17,497 nt of DNA from a virus (taxonomy: Duplodnaviria > Heunggongvirae > Uroviricota > Caudoviricetes). Position 1 is the stretch's first letter, and every line of letters begins with the position of its first letter. This document shows positions 6,741-17,497 of the stretch, one piece after another. The notes under the pieces were generated by a model that was not told the origin of the DNA, searched no databases, and worked only from the letters and a program-made list of their open reading frames with translations. The position numbers and the translations under genes were made by a program. Location: the IMG/VR virus record IMGVR_UViG_2681813135_000005; one strand, given 5' to 3'.

Positions 6741-7031
6741 TTAGTGATTCAGGCCGTTACCGCGTCCGTCGAGAAAAACTTCTACGAGCAAATCACGGGT
6801 ATAAGTGCGCTCGATGCCGCGATGCAGATAAAGCCGTCCGCGTAAATTAGCTGATGCAGTCCAGGTACCATCTTTGTGTTTGACCAGCATTCCTGGCATG
6901 ACCGCACCGCGATTAACGGTCTGCGTTCCGTAATGTTGATGAACCATAAAAACTCCTGCCCGTAAGCTGGGCTGCTGAACATATAGAGACTTCTGCGCGT
7001 ATTCAGGCGGTGGATGGCCGCCGGTTGTCAT
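6741..7031 (-). CDS. Hypothetical early protein, first ORF of the leftward (pL-like) operon, in the kil/cIII position
   Basis: 96-aa reading from the ATG at 7031 ([20 protein letters not shown]...[15 protein letters not shown]) with GAGGCGG upstream. The ORF track extends it to a TTG at 7151 (136 aa); that extension carries an Arg-rich stretch RLRGVRGVKRTRERR. Function not recognised. Confidence 0.4.
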
Positions 7032-7151
7032 AACTAAGCCGCCTCGTTGAAGCGACTGAGGTATAAAGTGTTGTGTTGATTTCAGCTGGTCACACCGACG
7101 TTCACGCGTCCGTTTCACCCCTCGCACTCCCCGAAGCCTGCTGAAATTCAA

Positions 7152-7310
7152 ACTGCGGATCTAAGCGGTCATCGCAACGGTGAAACAGGTGGTTACCGTA
7201 TCGTTGTGTCGTTGCGATGAATTTAATTTAAAACTATAGTTGTTTTATCGTCAACAACAAAAGTTGTTTTGTCGGTTGTTTTAAATATAACTGGTTGTAT
7301 TTAGGATGGA
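7152..7310 (-). promoter_or_regulatory. Leftward early promoter (pL-like) with OL-like operator repeats and a structured 5' leader
   Basis: Minus-strand TTGACG (7254-7249), 17-nt spacer, TTAAAT (7231-7226). Repeated AACAAC/GTTGTT-containing sites (AAAACTATAGTTGTTTT, CAACAAAAGTTGTTTT, CGGTTGTTTT, CTGGTTGTATTT). 10-bp perfect inverted repeat CATCGCAACG...CGTTGCGATG (7170-7219) begins at the predicted transcript start. Confidence 0.5.
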
Positions 7311-7393
7311 TTTATTTTGTGACTTGCATCGCATAGCGATAACTGAAGTGAGGTGTGGTGGTTTTTTGGACGGTATGAGTTATGAGGGGGAGG

Positions 7394-7420
7394 AAAAGAA
7401 AACCCGGCGCGGTTGCCGGG
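7394..7420 (-). terminator. Intrinsic terminator after the immunity-region lipoprotein gene
   Basis: Top strand AAAAGAAAA-CCCGGC-GCGGTT-GCCGGG. On the minus strand this is a GC-rich stem followed by TTTTCTTTT, placed 9 nt after the lipoprotein stop codon. Confidence 0.7.
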
Positions 7421-7428
7421 TATGATTA

Positions 7429-7809
7429 TCAGTCAGCCCAACCTGATTTCGAGTTTATTTGGGTTTCTGACATTGTGTATTTCTTAATCGTGTCATCGTT
7501 AAAAAGAATAGTAAGTTCTTTTTTCGTACCGTTCGTTCCATTATGGAATAATCCATAGAATGGAATAAAAGTGGTGCCATTAACTTTTACTTTTGCAAAG
7601 GCGTACTTCCAGATCTCGTTTCCACTGTCAGTATATGAAACAGCATCAGGAGAACCAAAGTAAGATTTAACCTCATTCTTGGTTGTTTTACCTTCCTGAA
7701 GTTTAGACTGGACACTAATTTCAGTTTCATTTTTGAGTTGCTGGTTGCCTGAAGAAGCACACCCAGCCAATACAGATGCCATCATGGCAGCGATTAGGAT
7801 TTTTCTCAT
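7429..7809 (-). CDS. Phage-encoded lipoprotein (SmpA/OmlA/BamE-like motif) in the rexAB position
   Basis: 126-aa ORF with signal peptide and lipobox (MRKILIAAMMASVLAGC). Segment KNEVKSYFGSPDAVSYTDSGNEIWKY resembles the BamE/SmpA-OmlA fold motif. AT-rich. Lies between the repressor gene and OL with its own terminator. Confidence 0.75.
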   Translation of the reverse strand: MRKILIAAMMASVLAGCASSGNQQLKNETEISVQSKLQEGKTTKNEVKSYFGSPDAVSYTDSGNEIWKYAFAKVKVNGTTFIPFYGLFHNGTNGTKKELTILFNDDTIKKYTMSETQINSKSGWAD

Positions 7810-8038
7810 TTTATGTTTCCATTCATTATAATCAGAAACATCTTAACATAATGATTCGAAATAAAAACCGCTACGAGATAGGGGGACATTTTGCTGACAG
7901 TAGCAACAAATCTCAGCTAACAACGAGAATATTTACTGAAATATGCAAACAGATTTGGCGTTCTTATAGAGAATTTAGTGCAATATCTAATCCGAGTGGT
8001 ATAAACCTTAACCTTCGCTCCCTTAAGTCGTAGATAAA

Positions 8039-8728
8039 TTAACCATGCTTCCTGTACGTCTGCGGCATGCTTCCAATGACCTTACCGAATATGAACACCC
8101 GGTTCATCTCGTCTTTCTCGATCGGGTCCCACGGCGAGTAGCTCTTGTTATCAGAGATAACCAGCAGCTTATCCTTCATCATTTGAAGACGTTTTACATG
8201 GGCAGTGTCGTCGTACAGAAACGCATAGATGCCATCACCGTCGAAAGATTTAACAGTGATATCAACGAACAGCAGGTCACCTGGTTCGATCGTCCCTGAC
8301 ATGCTGTCACCTCGCACGTTAATGATGCGGATATTTTCCGCCTTCCTGCCATCGAACATGTGACGAGCATCGTCAAACGAGTACTCAACCGAGCGTAGAA
8401 CTTCTACAAACTCACGGTTGATTACACCTGGCCCGGCACTGACTTCTATATCAAGAACGTCAATTTTGAAGTATTTGGAATGGCTGACAGTTGATTGTAT
8501 TGGTTGCACTGTACTGTCTGACATATTTCCAACGCCAGAAGATAACCATTCTGCGCGCACACCCAAAGCGTTCGCGATCTCCACGATTTTAGTTGTTTGG
8601 TTAGCTTTCCCTGTTTCGATTTTCTGAATAGCAGCCTGGCTAACCCCGACCAAATCCCCAAGCGCCTTTTGTGTAAGGCCTCGCGCTAATCTGGCTTCTT
8701 TAAGTCTTTCTGAGAGTGTTGTTTTCAT
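8039..8728 (-). CDS. CI-type prophage repressor (N-terminal HTH, C-terminal LexA/S24-like autoproteolysis domain)
   Basis: 229-aa ORF. N-terminal HTH (LTQKALGDLVGVSQAAIQKIETGK); C-terminal S24-like region with NVRGDSMSGTIEPGDLLFVD and a downstream lysine (HVKRL). No SD before the ATG, consistent with a leaderless pRM-type transcript. Not lambda cI. Confidence 0.85.
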   Translation of the reverse strand: MKTTLSERLKEARLARGLTQKALGDLVGVSQAAIQKIETGKANQTTKIVEIANALGVRAEWLSSGVGNMSDSTVQPIQSTVSHSKYFKIDVLDIEVSAGPGVINREFVEVLRSVEYSFDDARHMFDGRKAENIRIINVRGDSMSGTIEPGDLLFVDITVKSFDGDGIYAFLYDDTAHVKRLQMMKDKLLVISDNKSYSPWDPIEKDEMNRVFIFGKVIGSMPQTYRKHG

Positions 8729-8832
8729 AGATCAAATGTACAACCAAGGTTTTATTTCATCAAACGAAAATGGTTGTTGACTAAAAACAACCATAGTTTT
8801 AATCTTTATTCGGATTAACCACGGAGGTTGTT
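8729..8832. promoter_or_regulatory. Divergent pRM/pR-like promoter region with OR-like operators
   Basis: Between divergent repressor and cro-like genes. Sites AAAATGGTTGTTGAC and AACAACCATAGTTTT (reverse complement AAAACTATGGTTGTT, one mismatch from the OL site AAAACTATAGTTGTT). Plus-strand TTGACT, 17-nt spacer, TTAATC, then GGAGG and the ATG at 8833. Confidence 0.55.
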
Positions 8833-9063
8833 ATGAACCCAGCAATCAAAACAGCGATCAATATCGTTGGTTCACAAAAGAAACTAGGCGATGCCTGCGA
8901 AGTTTCACAGCAGGCCGTCTATAAGTGGCTTCACAACAAAGCAAAGGTATCCCCTGAACATGTCGGCAGCATTGTTACGGCTACTGGTGGAGTTGTGAAG
9001 GCATACCAGATTCGCCCGGATCTTCCGAAGTTGTTTCCACACACCGAAAAGAACGCAGCTTAA
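8833..9063 (+). CDS. Cro-like HTH regulator (YdaS/Cro family)
   Basis: 76-aa ORF with SD GGAGG. HTH-like segment KKLGDACEVSQQAVYKWLHNK. Divergent from the repressor gene, in the cro position. Confidence 0.65.
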   Translation: MNPAIKTAINIVGSQKKLGDACEVSQQAVYKWLHNKAKVSPEHVGSIVTATGGVVKAYQIRPDLPKLFPHTEKNAA

Positions 9064-11386: not shown

Positions 11387-11670
11387 CGGGCAAAGAGGCA
11401 ATTATTCATTACCTGGGGACTCATAAGAACTTCTGTGCGCAGGACGTTGCCGCGGTAACAGGCGCAACCGTAACCAGCATAAATCAGGCTGCGGCTAAAA
11501 TGGCGCGGTCAGGAATCCTGGTCGTTGATGGTAAGGTCTGGCGAACGGTGTATTACCGGTTCGCTACCAGAGAAGAACGGGAAGGAAAGGTGAGCACGAA
11601 TCTGATTTTTAAGGAGTGTCGTCAAAGTGCCGCGATGAAGCGGGTGTTGGCTTTATATGGAAGAGAGTAG
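11383..11670 (+). CDS. ren: Ren protein
   Basis: 95-aa ORF MTGKEAIIHYLGTHKNFCAQDVAAVTGATVTSINQAAAKMARSGILVVDGKVWRTVYYRFATREEREGK..., recognised as lambda-type Ren. ATGA overlap with P. Confidence 0.85.
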   Translation: MTGKEAIIHYLGTHKNFCAQDVAAVTGATVTSINQAAAKMARSGILVVDGKVWRTVYYRFATREEREGKVSTNLIFKECRQSAAMKRVLALYGRE

Positions 11671-11734
11671 GTATGAGCAATTATTGTTACTAATTTTAGT
11701 TTTACGACATTCGTGATAACTAAATAATTGATGT

Positions 11735-11989
11735 GTGGAACTGAATTATAAAGGGGATGATGTTTTGGGAAATAAAGAAAATATCGATTGTAAGCACACA
11801 AGAAGCTCATGCTATAAAAACAAGCAGATGAAAGATGTTATTTATATTACATTGCCTAAACTCACTGAAGAAGAAGTAGAAATTTTTAAGGGACCAATGC
11901 ATAAAGCATTGCTTGCAGGGATAAATGTTACAAAAAAGGCAGTTTCTGATGCCCTGCTAAACAAAGGGATAAAAGTTGAATTTAAATAG
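11735..11989 (+). CDS. Hypothetical small protein in the AT-rich cargo insertion (start uncertain)
   Basis: 84-aa ORF from a GTG at 11735, or 53 aa from the ATG at 11828 (MKDVIYITLPKLTEEEVEIFKG...). No clear SD for either. A 24-codon ORF with strong SD AAGGGGA starts at 11757 in another frame. Confidence 0.3.
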   Translation: MELNYKGDDVLGNKENIDCKHTRSSCYKNKQMKDVIYITLPKLTEEEVEIFKGPMHKALLAGINVTKKAVSDALLNKGIKVEFK

Positions 11990-12005
11990 AGTAATTCAGT
12001 GGCAA

Positions 12006-12033
12006 CAATAGCACTCATTTGTGAGTGCTATTG
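12006..12033. terminator. Hairpin between convergent cargo ORFs (putative bidirectional terminator)
   Basis: Perfect 12-bp inverted repeat CAATAGCACTCA-TTTG-TGAGTGCTATTG between the stop of the small plus-strand ORF (11989) and the stop of the 472-aa minus-strand ORF (12041). Followed on the plus strand by AAATTTATT. Confidence 0.5.
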
Positions 12034-12040
12034 AAATTTA

Positions 12041-13459
12041 TTAGAAAATAATGTTTGCTATATCCGAGATAGCATTTAAAGAACCTCTGTGGTCACTTCC
12101 TGTTTTAGGTAAAATATAGGAATATCGAGGGTCTTCATTATATGTTAACTTCCAGTGTTTTCCATCGCTTGACGCACTGAAACCTAAGTCCTTTAAATTT
12201 CTTTGTGTTGCGCTATCCATGCTTCTGTAACCTGTTAAAGTCCTTTTAAGTAATTGGCGGCGACTCTCGGTTTCTTTATTGTATTCATTATTGGCAATTA
12301 GGGATGATAAGATATGGTAGCTTCTACCAAATTCATTTTTATTTTTTATGGCAGTTTTTAGTGCGTCAATAATTATATTTTTGATTTCTCCATCAAAAAA
12401 ATCAGTCTCTTCACCAGCATTAAGCACAATGCTTCCTTGGGCTGAAGCTTGTGATTGAAGAGTGCGTACTCTGTGCTCTAAAGAGGAGATCTTATGCTTA
12501 AGATCTTCTATTTGGTCATCTTTCGCAACATTATCGGCTTCGTAAAGCGCCATCAGTTCGCGTGTGTATTCTCCTCTTTCTTTGAGTGAGTTAATAGAGT
12601 CTTTCGTTTTTCTGGTTTGTATCTCACTCCATCCACTATCTGAGACAGGAGCCATTGTAGTCGTAGCTCTTACAACATCATCAAATAACTCATCTTCAAA
12701 TTCTTTTGCGGTTTTCTCACCACGGCGATAAAAACTGATATTTTGACCCCGTGGCCAATAGATACCAACAGCACCAGCATAGGCATTTTTAGCATTTGTC
12801 TCATTTTTTAGCTTAATAGAAAATAGTCTATTGCTAGGCTCAATTAATACATGTGCTAATCCGCATACCTTTCTTGCAAGGCGTTCTGGGATGATATTGT
12901 GAGCATGTTCATTAAAAAAATACTTGGAGCTAACGTATATTATTGGTAGTCTGTTGTCAGTTTCACCATTTATAACTTTAGCTGCTATATTTAAATGTTC
13001 ATCAGTATCATCTAAGGAATGAGGTTCGACTGACACCTTGAAAATATCATCAAGACCACCAGAAAATTTATCAATCAATCTCATAACAACTAATGGTTTC
13101 TTAGGTTGCGGGGCTAGATAAGCTGCATCTTGGCTTACAACGCTAGATTCCACCTGAATCCACATGGTATCAGTTTTGAGATTTTTATTAATTGAAATAT
13201 CTGTTACCCATTTGTGTGGCTCAGATATTTTCGAATACCTAAAACAGCCTAAACTAGTATCTTTGTTTTTATAAGTTATTATATCAATTCTTTCATTTTT
13301 AGACTCTATGAAGTACTCCTCGCTTTTATAATCACATACTAATTGTGCTGGAATAAAAGTTGTATGTGGTGAGTCGTTTACCCAAGAAAAACATTCATTA
13401 AAGATCTCAGCTAGAGATGTGGAGTTTGAAACATAAAAACCAGTTGAGAAATATTTCAT
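12041..13459 (-). CDS. Large hypothetical protein (472 aa) of unrecognised family: cargo gene at the ren/ninB junction, candidate phage-defence or abortive-infection factor
   Basis: Uninterrupted 472-codon ORF with SD AAGGAA 5 nt before the ATG at 13459. Markedly AT-rich compared with flanking ren and ninB-like genes and transcribed against them. Central predicted coiled-coil (DDQIEDLKHKISSLEHRVRTLQSQASAQ) between an N-terminal region of about 290 aa and a C-terminal region of about 130 aa. No family recognised by eye. Confidence 0.8.
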   Translation of the reverse strand: MKYFSTGFYVSNSTSLAEIFNECFSWVNDSPHTTFIPAQLVCDYKSEEYFIESKNERIDIITYKNKDTSLGCFRYSKISEPHKWVTDISINKNLKTDTMWIQVESSVVSQDAAYLAPQPKKPLVVMRLIDKFSGGLDDIFKVSVEPHSLDDTDEHLNIAAKVINGETDNRLPIIYVSSKYFFNEHAHNIIPERLARKVCGLAHVLIEPSNRLFSIKLKNETNAKNAYAGAVGIYWPRGQNISFYRRGEKTAKEFEDELFDDVVRATTTMAPVSDSGWSEIQTRKTKDSINSLKERGEYTRELMALYEADNVAKDDQIEDLKHKISSLEHRVRTLQSQASAQGSIVLNAGEETDFFDGEIKNIIIDALKTAIKNKNEFGRSYHILSSLIANNEYNKETESRRQLLKRTLTGYRSMDSATQRNLKDLGFSASSDGKHWKLTYNEDPRYSYILPKTGSDHRGSLNAISDIANIIF

Positions 13460-13476
13460 GAAATTTCCTTATTAAA

Positions 13477-13494
13477 AATGAGATTAATCTCATT
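13477..13494 (-). promoter_or_regulatory. 18-bp perfect palindrome in the 5' region of the 472-aa gene (operator or attenuator-like hairpin)
   Basis: AATGAGATTAATCTCATT is its own reverse complement. It lies 18-35 nt upstream of the start codon; on the minus strand it is followed by TTTTT and then the SD. Confidence 0.45.
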
Positions 13495-13734
13495 GGCTAT
13501 GATAATTGTTACCCTCCTTTGGATCTAGTGTTCATTTGACATAAGAACCTATTGATTCATCATAATCAACTCGCCATAATCATGTCATCGGAGCCTGAAC
13601 AACTCCGGTGACTTCTGCGCTTTGAGGGGACTCAAAGTGCAAACGACAATCAGAACACCTTTCAACCAGTCACAGATGCAGAAATGCACCTGCGATATCT
13701 TGCATCCAACGTTTGACCTCTGCGGAGGTGAAGC

Positions 13735-15272: not shown

Positions 15273-15282
15273 ANNNNNNNNN
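15273..15282. other. Assembly gap (10 N) joining prophage sequence to an unrelated chromosomal locus
   Basis: Literal run of 10 n characters. Phage genes on the left, host REP/terminator/yidB on the right. Confidence 0.95.
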
Positions 15283-15318
15283 NAATCTTGCAATGTATTG
15301 AATTTTCATGATTTTGTA

Positions 15319-15349
15319 GGCCGGATAAGGCGTTCACGCCGCATCCGGC
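15319..15349. repeat. REP (repetitive extragenic palindromic) element
   Basis: GGCCGGATAAGGCGTTCACGCCGCATCCGGC matches the enterobacterial REP consensus in reverse orientation. Confidence 0.75.
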
Positions 15350-15366
15350 AAGAAGCTATAAGAAAA

Positions 15367-15395
15367 GGGCGGAGATCATCTCCGCCCTTTTTATT
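15367..15395 (+). terminator. Intrinsic terminator upstream of yidB (likely terminator of the preceding host gene, gyrB in E. coli K-12 order)
   Basis: GGGCGGAGAT-C-ATCTCCGCCC perfect stem followed by TTTTTATTT. Confidence 0.75.
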
Positions 15396-15469
15396 TCTGC
15401 AATCCGCAATTATCATCCCGCAAATCTATACTTTTTGGGTCAACACGTAACGCTTTACAGGTGATTATC

Positions 15470-15868
15470 ATGGGGCTTTTTGATGAAGTTGTCGGTGCCT
15501 TTCTGAAAGGCGATGCGGGGAAATATCAGGCTATTTTAAGTTGGGTTGAGGAGCAGGGCGGCATTCAGGTGCTGCTGGAAAAACTGCAAAGTGGCGGCTT
15601 AGGGGCCATTCTCTCAACCTGGCTGAGTAATCAACAGGGCAATCAATCGGTTAGTGGCGAGCAACTGGAATCGGCGCTCGGCACAAATGCGGTGTCCGAT
15701 CTTGGACAAAAACTTGGCGTGGATACCAGTACAGCTTCCAGTTTACTGGCAGAACAATTGCCGAAGATTATTGATGCGCTCTCACCGCAAGGTGAAGTGT
15801 CTCCACAAGCCAATAACGATCTGCTTTCCGCAGGCATGGAACTGCTGAAAGGGAAACTCTTCCGCTAA
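15470..15868 (+). CDS. yidB: YidB (DUF937 family protein)
   Basis: 132-aa product MGLFDEVVGAFLKGDAGKYQAILSWVEEQGGIQVLLEKLQSGGLGAILSTWLSN... from the ATG at 15470, recognised as E. coli YidB. The track's GTG at 15461 adds three residues. Confidence 0.85.
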   Translation: MGLFDEVVGAFLKGDAGKYQAILSWVEEQGGIQVLLEKLQSGGLGAILSTWLSNQQGNQSVSGEQLESALGTNAVSDLGQKLGVDTSTASSLLAEQLPKIIDALSPQGEVSPQANNDLLSAGMELLKGKLFR

Positions 15869-15880
15869 GCAAATGGGGAG

Positions 15881-15910
15881 CATGCAACCCGCGTTGCATC
15901 CCCCTTTTCC
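15881..15910 (+). terminator. Putative terminator or attenuator hairpin between yidB and yidA
   Basis: ATGCAAC-CCGC-GTTGCAT hairpin followed by CCCCCTTTTCCC. Confidence 0.35.
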
Positions 15911-15982
15911 CTCGGGTGTTGTACTGATTTTTGAGCGGAATCGCGTTAGCATGGGTCAGGAACTAATCTACCTGGGGAACTC

Positions 15983-16795
15983 ATGGCTATCAAACTCATT
16001 GCTATCGATATGGATGGCACCCTTCTGCTACCCGATCACACCATTTCACCCGCCGTTAAAAATGCGATTGCCGCAGCTCGCGCCCGTGGCGTGAATGTCG
16101 TGCTAACGACGGGTCGCCCTTATGCAGGTGTTCACAATTACCTGAAAGAGCTGCATATGGAACTGCCGGGCGACTACTGCATTACTTATAACGGCGCGCT
16201 GGTACAGAAGGCCGCTGATGGTAGCACCGTGGCGCAAACCGCTCTCAGCTATGACGACTACCGTTTCCTGGAAAAACTCTCTCGCGAAGTCGGTTCTCAT
16301 TTCCACGCCCTGGACCGCACCACGCTGTACACCGCCAACCGTGATATCAGCTACTACACGGTGCATGAATCCTTCGTTGCCACAATTCCGCTGGTGTTCT
16401 GCGAAGCGGAGAAAATGGACCCCAATACCCAGTTCCTGAAAGTGATGATGATTGATGAACCCGCCATCCTCGACCAGGCTATCGCGCGTATTCCGCAGGA
16501 AGTGAAAGAGAAATATACCGTGCTGAAAAGTGCGCCGTACTTCCTCGAAATCCTCGATAAACGCGTTAACAAAGGTACGGGGGTGAAATCACTGGCCGAC
16601 GTGTTAGGTATTAAACCGGAAGAAATCATGGCGATTGGCGATCAGGAAAACGATATCGCAATGATTGAATATGCAGGCGTCGGTGTGGCGATGGATAACG
16701 CTATTCCTTCAGTGAAAGAAGTGGCGAACTTTGTCACCAAATCTAACCTTGAAGATGGCGTGGCGTTTGCTATTGAGAAGTATGTGCTGAATTAA
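15983..16795 (+). CDS. yidA: HAD-superfamily (Cof-type) sugar phosphatase YidA
   Basis: 270-aa ORF MAIKLIAIDMDGTLLLPDHTISPAVKNAIAAARARGVNVVLTTGRPYAGVHNYL... with HAD motif I DMDGTLL and a C-terminal GDQENDIAM motif. Recognised as E. coli YidA. Confidence 0.9.
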   Translation: MAIKLIAIDMDGTLLLPDHTISPAVKNAIAAARARGVNVVLTTGRPYAGVHNYLKELHMELPGDYCITYNGALVQKAADGSTVAQTALSYDDYRFLEKLSREVGSHFHALDRTTLYTANRDISYYTVHESFVATIPLVFCEAEKMDPNTQFLKVMMIDEPAILDQAIARIPQEVKEKYTVLKSAPYFLEILDKRVNKGTGVKSLADVLGIKPEEIMAIGDQENDIAMIEYAGVGVAMDNAIPSVKEVANFVTKSNLEDGVAFAIEKYVLN

Positions 16796-16840
16796 TCTGT
16801 GGGCGGGCAAACAGCATAAACGCGTTTGCCCGCTTACTGA

Positions 16841-17497
16841 TTATTGGTTTACTGCATATACAACCAGAAATTGCAGCGGTGCAGTAATGATGTCCAGCGT
16901 AACAGTCACTGGCAGTAATGCTGCGGAAACACCATCCGGAATGCCTCTGGGTGAATAGTATTCATAAAATCGCACTTTAAATGGATGGTAGAACGCCATC
17001 ACCTTTGAGTAATCCATGTTTTTATTTTTCTCATGGATTGTGCCTTTTAGGTTTTCCAGTGACCTGGTACAGTGTTGAACACCACAGGCAAAACCATAAT
17101 GCGTTGCCAGTGCCTTTTCTTCTTCGTTATTCCAGTAGTAGTAAAGCGATATTGTGCCGGTAAATTTCTTTTTCCCCGCATTTAAAACAAATCTTGCGTC
17201 ATCGGCAACCTGAATATTGTGCCGGTTAAGTGCTGGATCATTGAGCATCTTAACGATGTCATCGGCACCATCAGTGATAAGGTAATCCAGCGATTCCCCT
17301 ACAAAAACATAGCCTTTTGTTCCATTACTATCTTTTGCCTGCGATAGCCCAGTGATGGTGTCTGACTGCGATTGATACTTTCCTGAACTACCCTTTGCGG
17401 TATGGGAAACCAGAGCATACGAGATACAGCCTGAAAGCATCAGCGCCAGTGGGAATAAACCGGCAGCCTTAAAAAATCCCTTAAAATTCAACTTCAT
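16841..17497 (-). CDS. yidX: Predicted lipoprotein YidX
   Basis: 218-aa ORF starting at the last base of the window (ATG 17497..17495), [24 protein letters not shown]... with lipobox. Gene order yidB-yidA-yidX matches the E. coli chromosome. Confidence 0.8.

Follow-up and report, generated by a model that had tools for sequence, protein, structure and literature searches.

A BamE-fold lipoprotein gene in the repressor-downstream cargo slot of a lambda-like Escherichia coli prophage, a candidate for superinfection exclusion

Gp15 of phage HK97 is an inner-membrane protein that reportedly acts in superinfection exclusion, and its moron slot has the tail chaperone genes on one side and the tape-measure gene on the other. 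Cor of phages HK022, phi80 and N15 and Llp of phage T5 are small, moron-like phage lipoproteins with a lipobox that act on the envelope and block the receptor FhuA (record annotation, literature). The cI-N interval is a mosaic hotspot, holding rexAB in lambda and bstA in BTP1 (PMC8585504). Here, a lipoprotein gene between a cI-type repressor gene and the leftward operators was analysed in a viral DNA stretch of 17,497 nucleotides (IMG/VR record IMGVR_UViG_2681813135_000005; the whole stretch is called the window below). The gene is a single-gene cargo (moron) of the repressor-downstream hotspot in a very common lambda-like E. coli prophage backbone, and its product is a BamE-fold protein, not a BamE orthologue. 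Expression in lysogens and a role in the envelope are well-supported predictions; superinfection exclusion by the lipoprotein is plausible and is proposed tentatively.

An AT-rich gene for a 126-residue protein with a signal peptide and lipobox LAGC had been read from the letters in a first-pass annotation, and this was confirmed by the open reading frame (ORF) at 7429-7809 (38% GC). The gene and its cargo segment comprise the following features.

7429-7809, minus strand: lipoprotein coding sequence, 126 amino acids plus stop codon; phrog_3135 / "SEN1984 family lipoprotein", BamE/BLIP-type fold
7759-7809, minus strand: signal peptide and lipobox, MRKILIAAMMASVLAG followed by C17, with Ala at +2
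7537-7569, minus strand: codons for the near-invariant, family-specific hairpin FIPFYGLFHNG (residues 81-91), the most conserved element
7422-8038, no strand: cargo segment of the hotspot, from the cI stop codon to the backbone terminator, from alignment with PhiR34_1 and PhiR5_1

The precursor N-terminus, MRKILIAAMMASVLAG followed by CASSGN, starts with MRK, of which two residues are basic, continues with 13 hydrophobic residues and ends in the lipobox LAG/C17, which fits the pattern [LVI][ASTVI][GAS]C. Outer-membrane sorting via Lol is predicted from Ala at +2 (E. coli rule: no Asp). A lipobox was found in 106 of 122 distant homologues, among which the +2 residue was A, S, G, V or T and never Asp. 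In comparisons with 15 homologues from other genera, the proportion of synonymous differences (pS) was 0.72-0.94 (saturated) and that of nonsynonymous differences (pN) 0.09-0.20, and the ratio of nonsynonymous to synonymous substitution rates (dN/dS) was about 0.05 in the two pairs where it was computable. The ORF is a real gene under strong purifying selection.

The protein matched phrog_3135 (function unknown) of PHROGs over its full length (E 2.9e-48; residues 1-124 on profile 1-114), and the family contained 1332 cluster representatives (50% identity clusters, E up to 1e-3). In the AlphaFold2 model, two helices are packed on a three-stranded sheet, as in the BamE fold; the mean predicted local distance difference test score (pLDDT) was 79, with values above 90 across most of the domain and of 54-72 at residues 71-90, a stretch covering most of the hairpin. 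Matches in a viral structure library were the SmpA/OmlA lipoproteins of Pseudomonas phages PP9W2 and B3, and the structural relatives included the envelope-homeostasis lipoproteins OsmE and BamE. Aligned motifs were shared with BamE of E. coli MG1655 at 24% identity. A 12-residue insertion (VNGTTFIPFYGL) between strands 1 and 2, of which the hairpin is a part, is present in the lipoprotein family and absent from BamE; moreover, bamE of MG1655 adjoins recN, and the lipoprotein gene is instead prophage cargo. A BamE/SmpA-OmlA-like motif had been noted earlier; the Pfam BamE score (PF04355, 21.8 bits) fell just under the gathering cut-off of 23.2.

A DNA stretch 100% identical to the gene occurs in E. 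coli genomes, where the Prokaryotic Genome Annotation Pipeline (PGAP) names it "SEN1984 family lipoprotein". RefSeq copies of this stretch were mostly called "outer membrane protein assembly factor BamE", others "BamD" or "hypothetical protein", and newer ones "SEN1984 family lipoprotein"; the names BamE and BamD are over-annotations, so that a widespread annotation error is corrected here. SEN1984 is encoded on ROD21, an excisable Salmonella Enteritidis island, and is BamE-like by Phyre2 prediction (PMC10655114, PMC3198454). A profile search of PDB sequences with the lipoprotein gave nothing significant, NCBIfam gave sub-threshold matches to N-terminal lipoprotein signals only (best Ag473, 27.9 bits against a cut-off of 100), and none of the PADLOC defence-protein models matched at E up to 1. 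A literature search turned up no work on what SEN1984, phrog_3135 or the phage SmpA/OmlA lipoproteins do. The family is already catalogued.

The fold brings in two further explanations. As a BamE mimic, the protein would dock on the beta-barrel assembly machinery (BAM) at the BamD/BamA site of BamE and alter the assembly of outer-membrane proteins or the conformation of BamA; it could then help to assemble the prophage's own barrels, lower receptor levels, or block users of BamA such as short-tailed Stx phages and contact-dependent inhibition (CDI) toxins. This reading is improbable given the limited identity, the sub-cut-off Pfam score and the insertion missing from BamE, and many phages with the gene carry no barrel-protein morons. 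[quoted passage not shown] Its proposed targets would be a T6SS effector, a bacteriocin, a tail-borne cell-wall hydrolase or the tape-measure protein, with the hairpin as an inserted binding loop. The basis here is the analogy of fold; an effector or toxin gene was seen beside none of the homologues, and a conflict-driven target would predict faster change than was observed, which makes this proposal equally doubtful. A combined form has a comparably small chance of being right: a BamE mimic or BLIP-like binder would grip BAM or another conserved machine of the envelope by its invariant aromatic hairpin and remodel the cell surface from the periplasm. Such a protein would exclude phages or toxins that need BamA or newly assembled receptors, and its cassette would move among three kinds of site, namely repressor slot, tape-measure slot and chromosome.

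Escherichia phage PhiR26_1 (PV340555.1) matches the window at 99.8% over 7100-8800 and has the same ORF, annotated "hypothetical protein / putative lipoprotein". The surroundings of the gene comprise the following features.

8039-8728, minus strand: cI-type repressor (HTH_3 and Peptidase_S24), upstream of the lipoprotein gene on the same strand
about 7224-7304, minus strand: OL operators together with pL, the leftward promoter (TTGACG and TTAAAT or TAAATT, spacer of 17-18 nt)
8735-8811, no strand: OR operators with pR, operator sequence the same as in OL
7392-7421, minus strand: intrinsic terminator, a 7-pair G+C-rich hairpin (CCCGGC-loop-GCCGGG) followed by a T-run

The repressor gene is divergent from a YdaS-type cro (8833-9063) and a YdaT-type cII. 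An operator-like repeat, AAAACAACTATAGTTTT, at 7230-7246 is almost identical to AAAACAACCATAGTTTT of the cI/cro intergenic region, and each overlaps a TTGAC(G/T) -35 hexamer, which places OL/pL at about 7224-7304. Therefore the lipoprotein gene, with the repressor on one side and OL/pL on the other, occupies the rexAB position of lambda, as had been suggested together with a terminator on its 3' side, which was found at 7392-7421. Sibling phages carry this terminator as well, so it belongs to the backbone and closes off the immunity transcript irrespective of which cargo is present. No Rfam family was matched in a scan of the window.

Backbone homology with sibling phages of the same immunity type extends over kil, pL/OL and the terminator up to 7421 and is resumed exactly at the cI stop codon (8039), and the cargo between the two blocks amounts to 617 bases. 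The sites flanking this insert are adjacent in relatives without the gene (PhiR34_1, ST131 prophages). Base composition also sets it apart: the GC content is 38% in the lipoprotein gene and 36% over 7422-8038, against 47% in cI and 52% in kil-exo. Within the cassette lies a conserved promoter-like element of the extended -10 type; terminators flank homologous cassettes, and the downstream one in the window is part of the backbone. In relatives whose backbone is the same or closely related, the slot was occupied as follows.

PhiR34_1 and an ST131 prophage: empty
PhiR5_1: HipA/HipD
PhiR47_2: GevT/GevA toxin-antitoxin
PhiR30_1, PhiR68_2, Perceval and strain 02E060: two-gene sets, function unknown
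Strain JB2: 337-residue unknown protein

Among 5426 complete E. coli genomes, 1862 had the backbone segment 7160-7421, and 69 had the lipoprotein cargo, every time beside the repressor gene. A slot found in about a third of complete E. coli genomes, with freely swapping cargo, lends interest to the role of each cargo, because knowing it shows what prophages give their hosts. A literature search for GevT/GevA returned unrelated papers only.

In sibling phages the same slot (loci L012, L013, L014-L016, L054 and L055) holds HipA/HipD, GevT/GevA, and gene pairs for a protein of about 340 residues and a smaller one of about 140-170 residues. The smaller protein of the Perceval pair is annotated as transmembrane, and the pair is reminiscent of RexA/RexB by size and order.

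Homologues were surveyed in the 80 top-ranking viral contigs (identity of 79% or more). The homologue was located downstream of a repressor in 54 contigs, including 31 that are no near-identical copies of the window and have several different repressors among them, and adjoined the tape-measure gene in at least 18 of the 80; several of the 8 unclassified contigs also had it in the tail module. When one genome per species was taken (33 loci), the repressor slot accounted for 5 and the position next to the tape-measure gene for at least 7. The homologue precedes the tape-measure gene in Klebsiella RAH1, Pseudomonas U7 and Alteromonas P24 and lies beside the integrase in Pseudomonas Lodos.

Two recurrent arrangements were recorded. 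RAH1-like siphophages (Klebsiella, Raoultella, Phytobacter, Biostraticola, Pantoea) and a Serratia prophage related to them carry the homologue as a stable resident, with the major-tail/orf55 genes on one side of it and the tape-measure gene on the other, and often beside an antirepressor gene (loci L003, L026, L027, L034, L035 and L105-L136). In Rac-like prophages (loci L004-L007, L020-L023, L028 and L082-L137), the lipoprotein gene is regularly followed by an opposite-strand ORF (65-97 residues, a homologue of S107 orf56) and then by KilR; this small ORF is missing from the window.

Signals for transcription of the gene were found on its 5' side.

7840-7848, minus strand: promoter-like element (extended -10) TGTTAAGAT, which travels with the gene and lies 39 nt 5' of the ATG
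7859-7885, minus strand: decayed remnant of an upstream terminator hairpin, which is intact in the Citrobacter and Salmonella S107 cassette copies

Of 40 homologue loci examined, 17 had the motif TGnTAnnAT at a distance of 39-51 nt from the start codon on its 5' side, compared with an average of 0.65 and a maximum of 3 in 1000 shuffles; the motif was kept as TGCTACGAT or TGCTACCAT in copies just 47-67% identical. Homology with the copies of Salmonella phage S107 and Citrobacter prophages begins about 80 nt 5' of the ATG and includes an invariant ATGTTAAGATG. No terminator was called between cI and the lipoprotein gene in the window, and read-through from the repressor promoter is expected because none separates the two genes. 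In prophages L021 and L022 the lipoprotein gene is placed 48 nt after cI and has no -10 element of its own, an operon fusion. The missing terminator after cI, the conserved extended -10 element and the L021/L022 fusion together make synthesis of the lipoprotein in lysogens a well-founded prediction, to which both routes point. The promoter scan gave no sigma-70 promoter of the classical -35/-10 type for the gene; the conserved element fits an extended -10. TCTGAT, upstream of the gene, was also weighed as a sigma-E promoter and was rejected by eye on account of the misfit of the -35 region and of TCCGAT in the Citrobacter copies.

The conserved 5' leader (7810-7839, minus strand) holds a short palindrome, ATTATAAT in the window and GATTGCAATC in relatives (loci L002, L004, L020 and L023), which could be the operator of some regulator. 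A leader hairpin hiding the ribosome-binding site (UUUCC/GGAAA, 4-6 bp stem) was considered and rejected, RNAalifold giving 4 pairs at -0.46 kcal/mol with covariation nearly nil. The palindrome is overlapped by a plus-strand promoter-like match at 7803-7832 (TTCTCA, 18-nt spacer, TATAAT; 10 of 12 positions), which is directed antisense into the 3' end of cI and may be due to chance.

Taken as a whole, the lipoprotein is most likely, at a level of confidence that stays tentative, a lysogen-expressed, outer-membrane-anchored and periplasm-facing binder that blocks other phages at adsorption or DNA entry. In the mechanism proposed, the precursor would be processed at Cys17 by cleavage and lipid attachment and sent to the outer membrane, and the mature protein would by default face the periplasm on a tether of about 15 residues, presenting a fold like that of BamE/BLIP plus the extra, near-invariant aromatic hairpin. 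In the lysogen, transcription would be supplied by read-through from the repressor promoter and by the gene's own extended -10 promoter and would run no further than the backbone terminator ahead of OL/pL. With its conserved hairpin and the face of its sheet, the protein would bind some conserved part of the envelope, which could be an outer-membrane protein or the route of incoming tails through the periplasm. Other phages would thereby be kept from adsorbing to the lysogen or from passing their DNA into it, in the manner of Cor or Llp and without kinship to them. The strong sequence conservation points to a conserved host target rather than a fast-evolving (arms-race) phage partner. The homologues recur in two slots, repressor-downstream and tape-measure, that elsewhere hold exclusion or defence genes.

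Several observations weigh against exclusion. The hotspot position is circumstantial, such slots also holding virulence and fitness genes. Several homologues (50-80% identical) reside in plain chromosomal surroundings (Trp/Tyr permease, major facilitator superfamily transporter, short-chain dehydrogenase, CopD) where phage genes were not recognised close by, and one family member lies in the ROD21 pathogenicity island; because of these, the family need not be phage-directed, and a general envelope role is possible. In addition, the remote homology search called for by the first-pass annotation revealed no relation to known exclusion proteins beyond the signal peptide, in keeping with the blank PADLOC result: in hhalign comparisons with the family profile, HK022 Cor aligned at residues 1-22 only (the signal peptide; no Cor PHROG was matched), T5 Llp at residues 1-29 only (probability 40%), and HK97 gp15 not at all. 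The same annotation had seen a classic arrangement for exclusion proteins in a lipoprotein gene expressed with the repressor. This argument is inaccurate because cor of HK022 follows tail gene J and llp of T5 is divergent from the receptor-binding gene oad, neither being beside a repressor.

Another explanation is a moron for host fitness or virulence, which would strengthen or alter the envelope of the lysogen (resistance to serum or complement, tolerance of stress or detergents, colonisation) in the manner of lambda Bor or Lom, with no direct effect on phages. The same prophage carries envelope morons of the virulence type, namely Bor, Lom, an OmpD/NmpC-like porin and an omptin; SEN1984 sits in an excisable pathogenicity island, homologues stand alone in chromosomal contexts, and the relatives OsmE and BamE serve envelope homeostasis. 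This explanation is set against the recurrence of the gene in two slots known for phage-exclusion or defence genes, the resemblance of sibling cargo in the same slot to defence or toxin-antitoxin systems, and the lack of a reported phenotype for SEN1984, and is considered somewhat unlikely. Exclusion by the lipoprotein, the preferred account, would, if true, make this the third family of exclusion lipoproteins, one of BamE-type fold and without kinship to the other two, and would be relevant to the prediction of phage-therapy host range in Enterobacteriaceae. Action on BAM, if true, would provide a natural tool for probing outer-membrane biogenesis, and the combined BamE-mimic or BLIP-like reading, if true, a new exclusion principle.

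Other features of the window were as follows. A run of 10 N at 15274-15283 is a scaffold gap. To its right (15284-17497) lie the core chromosomal genes yidB-yidA-yidX, which have no relation to the left end of the window, the ybhC/attB-lambda side; the gap and the unrelated flanks indicate that the window joins two contigs, and the late genes of the prophage are absent from it. Truncation of the prophage at about 15.27 kb is accordingly apparent only and is explained by the gap. A 472-residue ORF (12041-13459, minus strand) after ren, within a very AT-rich block (11550-13650, 32-36% GC), had no Pfam match and a weak PADLOC match to the candidate defence family HEC-07 (E 1e-9), and the gene at the same place in PhiR26_1 is annotated PD-lambda-1; this region is probably a second slot for defence cargo. 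No N-like gene was present between pL and kil, where a leader of about 190 nt (7031-7220, minus strand) contains a perfect 11-bp inverted repeat (7169-7179 and 7210-7220); kil probably starts at the ATG at 7031 rather than at the TTG at 7151. For the receptor of the host phage, the C-terminus of J matched long-tailed Stx1a/Stx2c phages, Perceval and cdtI and was less than 60% identical to most other J proteins matched, and no receptor was assignable from it.

Compared with the systems described above, the lipoprotein differs from Cor and Llp in length, their precursors having 77 residues against 126 here, and in its BamE-like fold. Distant homologues, and some close ones, share the slot of HK97 gp15 and have their own terminator, whereas gp15 itself (62 residues) has no similarity to the lipoprotein. 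With lambda rexA-rexB and Salmonella BTP1 bstA, transcribed with or beside the repressor in lysogens, the genomic slot is shared (PMC8585504); these are cytoplasmic or inner-membrane abortive-infection systems, whereas the gene described here encodes a single, dissimilar, secreted protein. BamE (SmpA/OmlA), a subunit of the BAM complex, is set apart by its sequence, by the insertion and by the prophage location of the lipoprotein gene. SEN1984 and phrog_3135 represent the same protein family as the lipoprotein, the BamE likeness of SEN1984 being a prediction. In function, an analogy with Cor and Llp, as a small prophage lipoprotein acting on the envelope, is possible.
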